Source: Candidatus Heimdallarchaeota archaeon
GTDB taxonomy: Archaea; Asgardarchaeota; Heimdallarchaeia; Heimdallarchaeales; Heimdallarchaeaceae
Reading direction: 5' to 3'
Assembly: GCA_030668875.1 (NCBI GenBank)
Contig: DAOVER010000029.1
Span: 6,709 to 38,708, forward strand
Length of the DNA stretch: 32,000 bases
The translations under genes were made by a program, and so were the position numbers. Every line of letters starts with the position of its first letter. Positions within the stretch are counted from its first letter, which is position 1. Positions 6,996-12,382 of the stretch are shown here, in pieces. Under the pieces are notes generated by a model, which saw nothing but the letters and a program-made list of their open reading frames with translations, searched no databases and was not told where the DNA came from.

Positions 6996-8024
6996 ATGAC
7001 GGATAGAAAAAAGAAACAAGTTAATTTTTTGGACAAAGTACTTGGATCTGTAACAAAGGAGGGAGGAGGTGGAGTATTTATCGCATTTGGAGAAGAAGAA
7101 TCGAAACGATTACGTTCAGAACAAAGAAAAACTTATGGAGATTCTGGATTAAAAATTGGCTCTATGCTCACATACAAAATTGATGACTATATAGCAATAA
7201 TTGAAGGAGAACTAAAGAATAATACACTTGAAGATGAAGAGAGATCTGCAAAAACAGAGACCCTATTATTTGCTACTAACATCAAAGTTTCCTTACAAAG
7301 CTTGAATATTTCAGACATTCAAATTCAAGAAGTTAACAATGAACTAAGATTATCATTTGATTCTTTAGTTCAGAACAAATATCCCTTCTTCTTACAGTTT
7401 TTTATCAGATATGAACGAGATGGAAGTATAGTTCTAGATGGTTTATTCAAGAAAATTCAACCCTTTAAAGTTTCAATAAGATCTTTTGGGGATGAAGCTA
7501 AGAAAGAAAATCAAGACAGTTTTGAAAATCTTAATTCTCTATACATTATAAATTCTAATGATGATTTGCTTGTTAAATTTTTAAACCAGAATCCAAGAAT
7601 AACTCAGAAATTAATTGCTTTATCTTCAAATCTTGAGCTAATCATGATTAATCGGAAATACTTTGTTGTAACATTTTACGATGCTAATTCTGTTATCAAA
7701 GTTATTGATTTACTAGGAGAACTCTATAATGAGTTTGTGATACAAAAAACTGGTTTGAAATCTGTAACTTACATCAAATGTTTCAATTGTGGAGAGGAGC
7801 TTGATGAAAATGACGAGAAATGTCCTAACTGTAATGCTAATAGACCTAGATGTGCTGTCTGTCTGTTAGACTTACAACTTGCTGAAAAAGAAGAAGTTGT
7901 TCAAATGCCTTGTTGTGGAGTTTATGGACATAGGGAACACGTTCTGATGTGGGTTGAAAGAGCTCATACTTGTCCAAATTGTAAATCAAGACAGATTGAT
8001 TGGTTGGATGAGTTAAATCGTTAA
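6996..8024 (+). CDS. Zinc-ribbon plus RING-finger protein (putative E3 ligase-like)
   Basis: C-terminal CFNC-x10-CPNC, then CAVC...PCC...GHREH...W...CPNC. Confidence 0.75.
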   Translation: MTDRKKKQVNFLDKVLGSVTKEGGGGVFIAFGEEESKRLRSEQRKTYGDSGLKIGSMLTYKIDDYIAIIEGELKNNTLEDEERSAKTETLLFATNIKVSLQSLNISDIQIQEVNNELRLSFDSLVQNKYPFFLQFFIRYERDGSIVLDGLFKKIQPFKVSIRSFGDEAKKENQDSFENLNSLYIINSNDDLLVKFLNQNPRITQKLIALSSNLELIMINRKYFVVTFYDANSVIKVIDLLGELYNEFVIQKTGLKSVTYIKCFNCGEELDENDEKCPNCNANRPRCAVCLLDLQLAEKEEVVQMPCCGVYGHREHVLMWVERAHTCPNCKSRQIDWLDELNR

Positions 8025-8167
8025 GTTTAGCGCACCTAGTGAGAATCTGATAATAGATAATTGGGTTCAAGGGATGAAAATTATTGCTACTTCAATTCAT
8101 ACTTTCTAATTTTTTTAAAGTTGAGAGAGCAAATTCTTTTTTAGTAAGTTATATATAACATCACTTG

Positions 8168-9559
8168 ATGTGTGATACAGTTGTTGCTGTTGGTAAGTCT
8201 ACCAAAGATGGTAGTGTTATTTTAGGTAAAAATTCAAATCGTGTTCCTAATGAGGTTCATAATGTTGAATATGTTGAAGGGAAAAAACATGGAGCTAATG
8301 CTAATGTCAAATGTACTTATATCACAATCCCCCAAGTAAAAGAAACATATGATGTTCTTCTACTGAAACCATTCTGGATATTTGGTTGTGAAATGGGTAG
8401 TAATGAGTTTGGTGTAACTATCGGTAATGAAGCCGTTTGGAGCAAGGAACCCATACGCGATACAGGTTTGCTTGGTATGGATATGATGCGCTTAGCATTA
8501 GAGAGATCAAAAACTGCAAAAAAAGCCCTTGAAATAATAGCAGAGTTACTGGAGAAGTATGGTCAAGGTGGTCAATGTACTTATGGTGTTAAAGGTCGTG
8601 ATTACCATAATTCTTTCATAATTGCTGATACAAAAGAAGCTTGGATTTTGGAAACAGCTGATAGATTTTGGATAGCTGAGAAAGTGAAAGGAATACGTAC
8701 AATTTCAAACACTCTTTCGATAGGTAGTGATTATGACTTAATTCATCCAGAGTTAATAGACCATGCAATCAAGAAAGGTTATTGTAAGAGTAAAGATGAC
8801 TTCCATTTTGCTAATAATTTCATACCCAAATTCCGTATATATCATGCTATAAAAGAGTCTCAACCTAGATCGCAATATTTTGCAAAGGGCTCTGATCGAC
8901 AACAATGTACTACAGCTCTTCTCTTAAGAAACAAGGGTAAGATAACTCCAGAAGACGTTATGGAAGTTCTTAGAAATCACAATCTCAAACCAGAAGAAGA
9001 AGCTACTTGGTCTGCATCAAAAGCTTCAGCTAAGAGTCCTTGTCAACACGCAACTGGTATGACAGTACCTAGTCAGTCAACTGGGTCTATCGTCTCTCAC
9101 CTGAAAAAAGTCATCCAAGTTCACTGGGTAACCGGTACATCAGGCCCATGTACAAGCACCTTTAAACCTGTATTCTTACCTAAAGTAGGATTCAGTAAAA
9201 AACCTATCCTGGGAGATGAAAAGTACAATGAAAAAGCTCTCTGGTGGCAACATGAAAAACTTCACAGATTGGTTCTTTTAGACTATCAGAAAAGGTTAGG
9301 AACATACAAAGAAGATCGAGACAAATTTGAGAAAAAATATGTTAAAAAAGTAAACACAATTCTCAAAGGTTTATCAGGAAAACCAACAAAAGCTGATTTA
9401 ACAAAAATGAAGAAGGTTACAACAGATTCGTTTAAGGAAAGTCAAAAGTTAACTGATGAATGGATTAATAATATAGTAGATCTTCCAATTGAAACAAGTA
9501 CAGGTGTACTTTATCGAAGATTCTGGAATAAATATAACAAAGTTGATGGTTTAAAATAG
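8168..9559 (+). CDS. Peptidase family C69 (secernin/dipeptidase, Ntn hydrolase)
   Basis: Met-Cys start MCDTVVAVG...GKNSNR, GCEMGSNEFGVTIGNEAV, GLLGMDMMRLALERS, HNSFIIAD...AWILET; ATG at 8168 exposes the Cys nucleophile. Confidence 0.9.
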   Translation: MCDTVVAVGKSTKDGSVILGKNSNRVPNEVHNVEYVEGKKHGANANVKCTYITIPQVKETYDVLLLKPFWIFGCEMGSNEFGVTIGNEAVWSKEPIRDTGLLGMDMMRLALERSKTAKKALEIIAELLEKYGQGGQCTYGVKGRDYHNSFIIADTKEAWILETADRFWIAEKVKGIRTISNTLSIGSDYDLIHPELIDHAIKKGYCKSKDDFHFANNFIPKFRIYHAIKESQPRSQYFAKGSDRQQCTTALLLRNKGKITPEDVMEVLRNHNLKPEEEATWSASKASAKSPCQHATGMTVPSQSTGSIVSHLKKVIQVHWVTGTSGPCTSTFKPVFLPKVGFSKKPILGDEKYNEKALWWQHEKLHRLVLLDYQKRLGTYKEDRDKFEKKYVKKVNTILKGLSGKPTKADLTKMKKVTTDSFKESQKLTDEWINNIVDLPIETSTGVLYRRFWNKYNKVDGLK

Positions 9560-9568
9560 GAGAAAGAG

Positions 9569-9645
9569 TGGCGTAAACTCAGAGGTGCCGTTATTTACAT
9601 TGCCAATTGGCTCAAACGGTAAAACCTTCATCATAATTCACGCCA
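9569..9645 (-). ncRNA. Putative box C/D small RNA (kink-turn RNA)
   Basis: Minus strand: 10-bp terminal stem UGGCGUGAAU/GUUUACGCCA, box C AUGAUGA (9634-9628), candidate D' UUGA (9615-9612), hairpin GCCAAUUGGC, box D CUGA (9582-9579); TTTTATAC at 9670-9663 upstream. Confidence 0.7.
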
Positions 9646-9721
9646 TTTAACAAATTACTATTGTATAAAATAAGTTTATCTTTGCGATAAGTTTAATTTT
9701 TATGAATTCTGTATCATAGAT

Positions 9722-11473
9722 ATGAAAGAGAGTATCAAAAAGTTTTTAGAAAAAGAATATCTCGAAACTATACGAATTCATCAACTTCGTCCGCTATTTG
9801 AGAGGTATTTAAACTTAAATTCTGATTTAGTTGAAAAATATGAAAAAGAATATTCTCGTCCCAAAAATTTGATAGTATCTGCTCTATATACAGCTGATTA
9901 TATTATAATGTCGTCGGAAGTGAAACTTGAACTTGAAGATGATGCTAGAAGGAAAGAAATAATCGAATTCTGGATAAACCTGAATATAACTAATGATGAA
10001 ATGTGGTACGAATTAACTTACATTGTAGCTTTTTCATATAGAATTGCTTCGATGCTTAGGAAACGTTACTATTATTTAATGGATAGAGGAGTTGCTAAGC
10101 AAATTGCAGCAGCATTGGTAGCTGATTACTTTGTTCGACACCACTTGGAATACACTTCTGACAAATTGAATATCATTCCAACTTGGTGGGTTGTTTTTCT
10201 AATGGAAACAGCTATGTGCCAAACAATATTTTCCACAACTCAAAAGAAGTGGGCTAACATCCAAGAAATACTCCACTCTAATGAAATGGGTTTATTATCA
10301 CACATAATTGCAAATAACTTCATAGGGGAAACTATAGGGGAACCCAATCCAGCTGTCCCCATACCATACTTCAAAGATTCTTCTATTTTCTACTATGCCA
10401 CATGGGTTCAAGACACAGTTAAAAAGAATCGATTTGAATCACTGTTACCTGCTAAGACTTCAGCACAAATTCATAAGGAGTTCAAGAAATGTACTCCGTT
10501 ATTGGATTCAAATAATCCACACATCTTAAAATACATGAGACTTGCAGGAAAATACTCGATTTCTTCTCCTGAGATAAATTTCATTATTGCAAATTCCCAA
10601 ATTAATGATGCTGAAGGTTGGATTGGATTGCTTACACCTTTAGATGATATCAATATGAAGGAAATAGAATCCCTATTAAAACTTAAACTAGATGATCTGA
10701 AAGCTCTTGAAAAATATGCAAAACATCTCCCAACTATTCAAGTTCTTCAGAGGCAAAAGGAAGAACGAGAAGTAGTTGAAGAGATAATAGAAAAAGAAGA
10801 GAAAAAAGGATTCTTCAAAAAGCTATTTTCAGGTTTTAAAAAGAAGAAGAAAAAAGCAGAGCCGAAGAAAGCTGTAAAAATACCACAATCAATAGATAAG
10901 TGGTATCGATTGGTTTTAGATGAAATACTCATTGCCAGCGTTTCTGGTATAGGACTAGGGTTAGAGATTTATGATTCATATCGTGAGGATAATTTCGTAA
11001 TTAGTGGATTAATTGAGTCGGAACAAAAAGAAACTCAACCCACAGTTTTCTATTCAGAAGCGACTGTCGCATTCCCATCTGAATTTCTAGATCCAATTAT
11101 TAGCCTTATTGAAGTAGGTAAATTGTTTATAGCAACAATAAAAAATGTAGAAACGATTTCAGTTATTCCTGAAGAAGCGTTTTATCGTGATAAGCAAGAT
11201 GTAGGTCTCTATAGACTTGTAGAATTTGTTTTCGGTGAAAAACTATTAGTTGGTATATTAGCAGAAAAACAAGCTAGAACAGCTATGACACTCGCAAGGT
11301 CAGAACCAACTTATCAGAGAAGATCACTTCAAAGAAAAGCTAACGAATTCGTACATGCGAGAAGAGTCAACAAAACTGACGACGTAGGTAAAAGAACACT
11401 TTCAAGAGAGATAAATTGGGATACTGTGAAATTAAGTTACGAGGAAAAACCATTGTTTTACAAGAAAAAATAG
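9722..11473 (+). CDS. Hypothetical protein with an internal amphipathic/polybasic segment
   Basis: 583-aa ORF; no family recognised; KKGFFKKLFSGFKKKKKK linker. Confidence 0.8.
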   Translation: MKESIKKFLEKEYLETIRIHQLRPLFERYLNLNSDLVEKYEKEYSRPKNLIVSALYTADYIIMSSEVKLELEDDARRKEIIEFWINLNITNDEMWYELTYIVAFSYRIASMLRKRYYYLMDRGVAKQIAAALVADYFVRHHLEYTSDKLNIIPTWWVVFLMETAMCQTIFSTTQKKWANIQEILHSNEMGLLSHIIANNFIGETIGEPNPAVPIPYFKDSSIFYYATWVQDTVKKNRFESLLPAKTSAQIHKEFKKCTPLLDSNNPHILKYMRLAGKYSISSPEINFIIANSQINDAEGWIGLLTPLDDINMKEIESLLKLKLDDLKALEKYAKHLPTIQVLQRQKEEREVVEEIIEKEEKKGFFKKLFSGFKKKKKKAEPKKAVKIPQSIDKWYRLVLDEILIASVSGIGLGLEIYDSYREDNFVISGLIESEQKETQPTVFYSEATVAFPSEFLDPIISLIEVGKLFIATIKNVETISVIPEEAFYRDKQDVGLYRLVEFVFGEKLLVGILAEKQARTAMTLARSEPTYQRRSLQRKANEFVHARRVNKTDDVGKRTLSREINWDTVKLSYEEKPLFYKKK

Positions 11474-11581: not shown

Positions 11582-12382
11582 ATGAATGACCATAATACTA
11601 ATGCAAATTTCTTCTTCTTACGAGGAAAAGACGGGTTCCTTAAAGGTAATTATCAGAATTGTATAAAGGATTTAATGTATGCACAAGAGATGTTTACAAC
11701 CATAGGTAATAAAGAGAAATCTGCAGAAAGTTCACTTCTTTTAGCTTCAGCATACTTTAACATCACTCGTTTTGATCAATCAAGATTGATGTTTGATCGA
11801 GCATATTCTAGGTTCAAAGAACTTAACAAACTAGTTAAATTAGGAGAATGTGCGTTAGCTCTTGGAGAGATCTATAAGGAAGAAGGGGAGTTCAAGCGAA
11901 GCAGACAGTATCTATTAGAATCAATACATATTTTTACTAATCTAAAAGATACAGAAAAACTAGCTGATTCATGGAAGCACCTAGCTGAAGCATATCAAAT
12001 GGATCTTTCAGATTCACATGATCATCAAGTTAGTATTGTTGAAGCTTACAGAACAGCACTTGGTTATTATAAAAAAGCAAAAAATAACAGAATGAAAGCA
12101 GAATGCGAATTTGATTTGGGGCATGTATTAATCTCCCAATCTAATTTTTCAGCGGCTTTGAAATTTCTCTCTCCTGCATTCAACTACTTCAAGGAAATAA
12201 ATAATCACGATAATGTAATTACAATTGCAATACTAATTGGTCGAATATATTTTGAACTTAGGAAAAAACCTAAAGCTAAGGAATACATGTTCGAAGCTAT
12301 AAATCAGATGAAAAAGGCTAATTATAATCCTGAAAAGATTGGCTCTGTACAGAATACAATTGCTTCCATGTTTGCAGGTTAG
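11582..12382 (+). CDS. Tetratricopeptide repeat protein
   Basis: Repeated helical TPR-like units (LASAYFNITRFDQSRLMFDRAY, LGEIYKEEGEFKRSRQYLLESI, LGHVLISQSNFSAALKFL). Confidence 0.8.
   Translation: MNDHNTNANFFFLRGKDGFLKGNYQNCIKDLMYAQEMFTTIGNKEKSAESSLLLASAYFNITRFDQSRLMFDRAYSRFKELNKLVKLGECALALGEIYKEEGEFKRSRQYLLESIHIFTNLKDTEKLADSWKHLAEAYQMDLSDSHDHQVSIVEAYRTALGYYKKAKNNRMKAECEFDLGHVLISQSNFSAALKFLSPAFNYFKEINNHDNVITIAILIGRIYFELRKKPKAKEYMFEAINQMKKANYNPEKIGSVQNTIASMFAG

Follow-up and report, generated by a model that had tools for sequence, protein, structure and literature searches.

Archaeal box C/D ribonucleoproteins, assembled from L7Ae, Nop5 and fibrillarin on a small RNA (sRNA), direct 2′-O-methylation at the nucleotide 5 nt upstream of box D or D′. 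In archaeal genomes the annotation of such sRNAs is poor. The generic members (the Rfam sR families of Pyrococcus, Sulfolobus and Pyrobaculum) share RUGAUGA and CUGA boxes, 12-nt spacers, the N+5 register, the L7Ae–Nop5–fibrillarin partnership and an organization as independent small genes in intergenic gaps. The locus described here resembles them in each of these respects, as far as its sequence predicts, and departs from them in a longer terminal stem, an internal hairpin and the lack of any Rfam family at the gathering score, a search that returned no match anywhere in the window (the whole stretch of 32,000 nucleotides analysed here, from a Candidatus Heimdallarchaeota archaeon). Its host has a 34% G+C genome, with marine sediment as the source on weak evidence. 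A literature search of incomplete coverage found no report or catalogue of C/D sRNAs for Asgard archaea.

Helix 18 of 16S rRNA is a methylation hotspot in archaea and is served by double guides, namely Sac sR115, Pca sR28, Tte sR114 and Iho sR21 (Dennis et al. 2015, PMC4644070). In the Sac sR115 set, the D′ guide is directed to E. coli A535 and the D guide to G515 on the other strand, and Sac sR115 itself reads GUGAUGA-AAGCUGGUAUUU-UUGA-UCA-AUGAAAU-AAGACAUCAGAA-CUGA (PMC4644070). Among known systems the present element comes closest, in arrangement, to Sac sR115 and Pca sR28, both of them crenarchaeal. As in that set, the D′ guide would pair with the 3′ strand of helix 18 and the D guide with its 5′ strand, and the D′ box UUGA with a degenerate C′ box (AUGAAAU in Sac sR115) has its counterpart here in AUGAAAA/UUGA. 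The predicted target differs, being A535 in the crenarchaeal set and U531 here, with the D′ guide shifted by 4 nt. The D guide of Sac sR115, directed to G515 (PMC4644070), forms 9 bp in our own alignment, whereas 6–7 bp are formed here, with N5 at G517–C519. The architecture differs as well: the crenarchaeal RNAs have a short stem and a 3-nt K-loop, whereas a 7–10-bp terminal stem and a hairpin-closed internal K-turn are predicted here.

The element lies between a Peptidase_C69 gene (8165–9559, plus strand), which is convergent to it, and a divergent gene for a 583-aa protein (9722–11473, plus strand) whose product has no Pfam match, and it accounts for a conserved intergenic block left empty by gene callers. 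The first-pass annotation, made from the sequence alone, had proposed a box C/D layout on the minus strand at 9569–9645, and its stem, bulge, boxes, spacers and hairpin all lie where it had placed them (Table 1). Read directly from the window sequence, the minus strand from 9645 to 9569 is UGGCGUGAAU-UAUGAUGA-AGGUUUUACCGU-UUGA-GCCAAUUGGC-AAUGUAAA-UAACGGCACCU-CUGA-GUUUACGCCA. The 10-bp terminal stem consists of eight Watson–Crick and two G-U pairs; among relatives only the inner 8 of the 10 pairs are conserved. The C box AUGAUGA stands opposite UCUGA in the register of a K-turn, and the sheared G·A and A·G pairs of the terminal K-turn would follow from the boxes as read. Both spacers, 12 nt from C to D′ and 11 nt from C′ to D, fall within the archaeal range of 10–12 nt (PMC7994747), and A9620, five nucleotides upstream of D′, is the proposed partner of the target uridine. 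The D′ box aligns with the canonical CUGA of a second family (f5, see below), whose C′ box is AUGAUGA. In the C′ box of the window and of six others of the 20 genus sequences, GU replaces the GA of the second sheared pair, which in AUGUAAA would become U·G. The internal hairpin measures 8–26 nt depending on the genome and retains two closing pairs.

Table 1. Features of the predicted box C/D sRNA gene, in window coordinates.
Feature	Position	Strand	Basis or remark
Entire predicted box C/D sRNA, 77 nt, bounded by the terminal stem	9569..9645	-	Sequence; covariance model score 91.6 bits (model from 20 homologues)
Terminal stem, 5′ strand UGGCGUGAAU	9636..9645	-	Partner 9569-9578; 97% of cells paired, 19 distinct homologues
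Terminal stem, 3′ strand GUUUACGCCA	9569..9578	-	Covariation counts
K-turn bulge UAU, 3 nt (U9635, A9634, U9633)	9635-9633	-	Sequence
C box AUGAUGA	9628..9634	-	RUGAUG(A/U) in 20/20 genus homologues
D′ guide AGGUUUUACCGU, 12-nt spacer	9616..9627	-	Core GGUUUUACCGU invariant in all family homologues
D′ box UUGA (UNGA across the family; CUGA in the second family)	9612..9615	-	GA invariant, second position variable
Variable hairpin GCCAAUUGGC, 10 nt, predicted to close the internal D′/C′ K-turn	9602..9611	-	Alignment
Degenerate C′ box AUGUAAA	9594..9600	-	Bulge A9601, A9600, U9599; AUGAAAA in most of the genus
D guide UAACGGCACCU, 11-nt spacer	9583..9593	-	GGCACC invariant in the genus
D box CUGA	9579..9582	-	Invariant in the genus alignment; 20/20 homologues
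TATA-like block CTTATTTTATAC, putative promoter	9663..9674	-	Centred ~25 nt before the stem
T-rich (pyrimidine) tail CUCUUUCUCCUAUUUU, likely transcription stop	9553..9568	-	Sequence

The surroundings of the RNA are consistent with a transcription unit of its own. An upstream element and a downstream pyrimidine tract had been noticed at first reading, and both are present: TTTTATAC occupies 9670–9663 (minus strand), 17 nt upstream of the stem, and the tail runs across the TAG (9557–9559, plus strand) with which the convergent peptidase gene ends. Each of the 20 genus homologues has a block of the form TT(T/A)AT(T/C/G)T at a constant ~26 nt upstream of the stem, and T-rich stretches follow the stem in homologues too. 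RNA reads from one run reached part of the peptidase gene in a relative and no position of the sRNA. The equivalent in family f5 is (A/T)TTAAATA, at a comparable distance. Another conserved block, on the plus strand, reads TTTGCGATAA-GTTTAATTT (9681–9699, 23–41 nt upstream of the ATG at 9722) and extends as TTTGCGATAA-GTTTAATTTTTAT to 9681–9702, 20–41 nt before that ATG; it is found in 20/20 genus genomes and, by its sequence, looks like the BRE/TATA promoter of the divergent, probably leaderless 583-aa gene and not a part of the sRNA. The two candidate promoters would thus stand back to back, ~20–30 nt apart. As for the neighbouring proteins, the first ~312 residues of the 583-aa protein are conserved, at 41–87% identity, beside the sRNA gene family-wide. 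Two further genes of the window are eukaryote-flavoured. The 342-aa product of 6996–8024 (plus strand) weakly matches the RING finger zf-RING_2 (E 1.6e-5, slightly below the Pfam cut-off), and the 266-aa product of 11582–12382 (plus strand) is a TPR protein with an additional match to the SNAP family.

Conservation was followed from the genus outwards. With the 191-nt intergenic region as query, BLAST gave matches in 22 of the 23 genomes of the genus, at 69–94% identity, and in distant genus members the similarity is limited to the RNA and ~55 nt upstream of it. A covariance model built on 20 genus homologues identified the element in 28 of the 29 genomes of the family, across five genera, and in none of the 16 genomes of three sister families. 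In a pattern scan of ~185,000 species genomes, the holders were MAGs assigned to Heimdallarchaeota, among them AB_125 and the closed genomes of Ca. Heimdallarchaeum endolithica and Ca. Heimdallarchaeum aukensis. Bacterial pattern matches were dismissed, since their number is that expected by chance and only two reach E 0.01 with the model, at 23.5 bits versus 35–97 bits for the archaeal ones. The C69 peptidase gene and the 583-aa gene flank the element throughout the family, and the flanking proteins diverge to 41–60% identity while the D′ guide remains identical. The first-pass annotation had suggested a search for covariation in related genomes, and compensatory changes were indeed found in all three helices, namely the terminal stem, the K-turn pair C7/N1 and the internal hairpin. 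Of the alignment cells, 93% agree with the proposed pairing, compared with 26–50% after the partners are slid by 1–3 columns. One pair of the terminal stem exchanges AU for GC (9:9), position 7 of the C box covaries with the nucleotide preceding the D box (AU 9, UA 5), and the closing pairs of the internal hairpin show CG/UA compensation. One member of the genus (G012) holds an additional, incomplete copy (L110:7376-7454, that is, contig C117:15376-15454), 2.1 kb from the syntenic gene, which comprises the 3′ half only, from the hairpin and C′ box through the D guide AACGGCACC to the D box and one stem strand; in the syntenic gene of that genome the D guide is altered to AAAGGCACC. Being incomplete, the second copy was not counted as evidence of selection.

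The same D′ guide recurs outside the order, in a second family (f5, one genus) that belongs to the same class. A pattern consisting of a C box, 2 nt, GGUNUUACCG, 3 nt and GA matched 28 of the 29 genomes of the first family (f1) and 18 of the 22 of the second, with no match in ~350 other genomes of the phylum and one match for a reversed-pattern control; with a relaxed guide pattern, matches across the class outside f1 and f5 stayed at the level of the reversed-pattern control. The RNAs of this second family have a canonical scaffold: the D′ box is CUGA and the C′ box AUGAUGA, the terminal stem is short, oligo-T comes after D, and a TATA-like TTAAATA lies ~33 nt upstream of the C box. The D′ guide keeps the register, with N5 = A, while N1 varies among G, C, A and U; the SSU rRNA of this family has the identical 530 loop, and the D′ guide again gives the best duplex there. 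Two of its genomes (G067 and G071; L154 and L159) carry the guide modules in swapped order, anti-GUGCCAG first and anti-530-loop second, which suggests module shuffling or a permuted gene. Lineages with GGUAAAACC and lineages with GGUAAUACC offer a contrast relevant to guide–target co-variation.

The assembly itself is without rRNA genes, and targets were therefore read from relatives, namely 11 SSU rRNAs (six from the genus and five from other genera) and, for the LSU, six from the genus and three from other genera. The D′ guide core GGUUUUACCGU forms ten contiguous Watson–Crick pairs and one G-U pair with the 530 loop of 16S rRNA (helix 18), GCGGUAAAACC, a loop that is identical in 11/11 family SSU rRNAs. 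This site is the unique best duplex in SSU and LSU rRNA (−17.1 kcal/mol versus −13.3 kcal/mol for the next), and a Watson–Crick run of 10 that includes N5 arose in 252 of 20,000 guide shuffles (frequency 0.013). The N5 nucleotide is the A of UUUUACCGU and its partner is the U of GCGG-U-AA, corresponding to E. coli U531. The target strings suggested by the first-pass annotation fared unequally: ACGGUAAAACC is almost right, the real site being GCGGUAAAACC, but GGUGCCGUUA is in no rRNA of the genus, where only its GGUGCC part is found, and its single perfect genomic match (contig C93) is at chance expectation. Among the 24 tRNAs found, neither guide forms a convincing duplex. As a separate observation, rRNA genes differ greatly in length among close relatives: the LSU (L025 and L026 of G015 and G019) measures 3.4 kb in some and 4.2–4.4 kb in others, and the SSU of G073 (L165) measures 2.2 kb, not 1.5 kb; such differences may reflect insertions, expansion segments or introns.

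The predicted site is one reported to be modified in eukaryotes. Since yeast G577 corresponds to E. coli G530 and to G626 of higher eukaryotes (PMC5187420), the target matches yeast U578 and human U627, and methylation has been reported as Um578 (snR77), Um627 (HBII-135), Um580 in Arabidopsis (snoR77Y) and Um571 in Dictyostelium (PMC8817022, PMC11542601). On the archaeal side, the P. abyssi column of a comparative table has no entry in the row of the U531-equivalent (PMC11542601), and the tables of a seven-species archaeal survey do not list U508, that paper's number for the same position (PMC4644070).

The D guide pairs less strongly. Its genus form, AACGGCACC-(U/A)-CUGA, makes 6 bp with GGUGCC on the 5′ strand of 16S helix 18, extended to 7 bp by an A at N1; in the four remaining genera, AACUGGCAC-N-CUGA forms 7 bp with GUGCCAG, and in the second family, AACUGGCAA-CUGA forms 6 bp with UGCCAG. 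The N+5 position accordingly shifts by lineage, from E. coli G517 to C518 to C519. By shuffle test, rRNA runs of 6–7 bp are expected by chance and are not significant alone. In favour of the pairing, the site lies 6–7 nt from the D′ site, complementarity to positions 514–521 survives indels, and the two genomes with the changed guide AAAGGCACC differ outside GGCACC. Three other candidate targets were rejected: 16S GUGCCGU in the helix-34 region, the pairing of which is broken in G011 and G012 (guide AAAGGCACC) and is also unsupported by the AACUGGCAC form; the 16S 5′ end GCCGGUU, which is missing from family f5 even though f5 keeps AACUGGCA; and 23S AGGGGCUGUUGU, where a mismatch adjoins N5. 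A methylation directed by the D guide as well is doubtful, though possible.

The genome encodes the protein machinery that such an RNA would require, namely fibrillarin (PF01269, 307 bits) with an adjacent Nop5 (PF01798, 212 bits; contig C36) and L7Ae (PF01248, 94 bits). A loose regular expression for more sRNAs in the genome returned mostly coding sequence and one further convincing sRNA gene, which begins at 8467 (plus strand) of contig C36 and has the form AUGAUGU-12 nt-CUGA-AGA-AUGAUGA-11 nt-CUGA; both guides have perfect matches in 16S rRNA, of 10 and 9 nt, which lie toward its 3′ end and are separated by ~70 nt (positions 1356 and 1429 of a relative's SSU). Given the fibrillarin, Nop5 and L7Ae genes together with a second sRNA whose guides match 16S rRNA, RNA-guided rRNA methylation is expected in this organism. 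In Rfam at relaxed threshold, the region 9450–9780 matches four families only, all of the C/D-box kind and all on the minus strand, the best being SNORD19B, aligned over its full length with E 0.23 and 22.8 bits, where the family threshold is 50.

We therefore favour, with a probability of roughly 0.85 for the account as a whole, an independently transcribed archaeal box C/D sRNA gene whose D′ guide directs Um at the U531-equivalent. It is very likely indeed that the locus encodes a box C/D guide RNA; if it does, the direction of that modification by the D′ guide is itself likely. A snoRNA-like guide with a transcript of its own had been one of two readings offered at first sight, and it gains support from the boxes, the covarying K-turn stems, the 12-nt spacing, the TATA-like block and the T-rich tail, as well as from the fibrillarin, Nop5 and L7Ae genes and from a 530-loop antisense in register. 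In the proposed mechanism, boxes C and D would form the terminal K-turn, and D′ and C′ an internal K-turn closed by the variable hairpin; L7Ae would bind both K-turns, upon which Nop5 and fibrillarin would assemble. The 12-nt D′ guide would then anneal to the 530 loop of helix 18, 5′-GCGGUAAAACC-3′, and fibrillarin would methylate the 2′-OH of the uridine opposite the fifth guide nucleotide upstream of D′, that is, E. coli U531, adjoining the decoding nucleotide G530. The D guide, through its weaker 6–7 bp with GGUGCC(AG) on the opposite helix 18 strand, probably keeps the hairpin open or aids folding, and probably sets no conserved methylation site.

The other reading offered at first sight was a K-turn RNA acting by its own fold, as an L7Ae-binding regulator or scaffold with its two guides paired together, and not as a methylation guide. 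The partial complementarity of the guides is plain in the sequence, and the minimum free energy fold does pair AGGU with ACCU and CCGUU with AACGG (−22.8 kcal/mol, z −2.7); the D guide, moreover, has no significant rRNA match, and the conserved AAC at its 5′ end is unexplained by rRNA pairing. The inter-guide pairing, however, shows no covariation, and complementarity between the guides follows from their being antisense to the two strands of a single rRNA hairpin, helix 18, so that a self-paired regulatory RNA is not needed to explain it. The D′ guide is an exact 530-loop antisense at the canonical 12-nt spacing, and it is kept in the second family, where the 3′ end of the guide (CCGG or CCGC) has lost its pairing with AAC; the swapped modules in two genomes likewise preserve guide function and not a single long hairpin. 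An RNA acting by self-pairing is thus very improbable. Improbable too, if a little less so, is that the particle serves as an assembly chaperone for helix 18 without methylation, or that it methylates the D′ site alone and uses the D guide purely as a clamp. The guides bracket the 530 loop so that only the pseudoknot-forming CCGCC is left free, the D-guide register slides by 1–2 nt between lineages with complementarity to 514–521 kept, and a chaperone role has been proposed before for double guides (PMC4644070). The D′ register, on the other hand, is strictly fixed, with N5 = A opposite U531 in both families despite a variable N1 and D′ box, as would be expected if the methylated nucleotide matters, and fibrillarin is encoded.

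A different kind of explanation places the function on the plus strand, where the element would serve the peptidase gene as terminator or 3′-UTR structure, or the 583-aa gene as an operator upstream of it. The position of the element, 10 nt past the stop codon of the plus-strand peptidase gene, would suit such a role, and the plus strand folds as well (−18.8 kcal/mol, z −2.5). Yet 22 stem cells of the alignment hold G-U, which on the plus strand would become C-A mismatches, so that the functional strand is the minus strand; the boxes and the TATA-like block share that orientation, as do the weak Rfam matches, and the invariant stretches correspond to loops of the plus-strand fold and not to its stems. 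A plus-strand function is therefore scarcely credible, and the minus-strand guide RNA remains the preferred reading.

With the eukaryotic guides snR77, HBII-135 (SNORD65), snoR77Y and Dictyostelium CD21, the archaeal RNA would share the box C/D mechanism and the predicted target, the same uridine 3′ of the decoding G530 (PMC8817022). The guide differs from those of snR77 and SNORD65 where the rRNA differs, the archaeal sequence being GGUAAAACC. The eukaryotic counterpart of that sequence is GGUAAUUCC. The archaeal RNA further differs from snR77 and SNORD65 in having functional-looking C′ and D′ boxes and a second guide; the snR77/SNORD65 families are absent among Rfam matches up to E 10, and there is no sequence or covariance-model similarity to them. 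Since guides are constrained by their target, likeness between guides cannot decide homology.

The guide RNA gene is apparently undescribed. Its kind is ordinary and its interest lies in the target; as an example it is well supported, comes with a covariance model and has a clear predicted target. The predicted site adjoins decoding G530 and is the counterpart of a ribose methylation reported for yeast, human, plants and Dictyostelium that is not among the predictions for the surveyed archaea. The Heimdallarchaeal class is thought to comprise the closest archaea to eukaryotes. That Um at this decoding-centre uridine (U531/Um578/Um627) was already RNA-guided in Heimdallarchaeial ancestors, with the present sRNA family as the forerunner of snR77/SNORD65, is a speculative and unlikely proposal; were it true, this would be among the very few individual snoRNA–target pairs that can be followed through the archaeon-to-eukaryote transition. 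Confirmation of the methylation would open the question of whether individual rRNA modifications, together with their guides, descend from the archaeal ancestor of eukaryotes.
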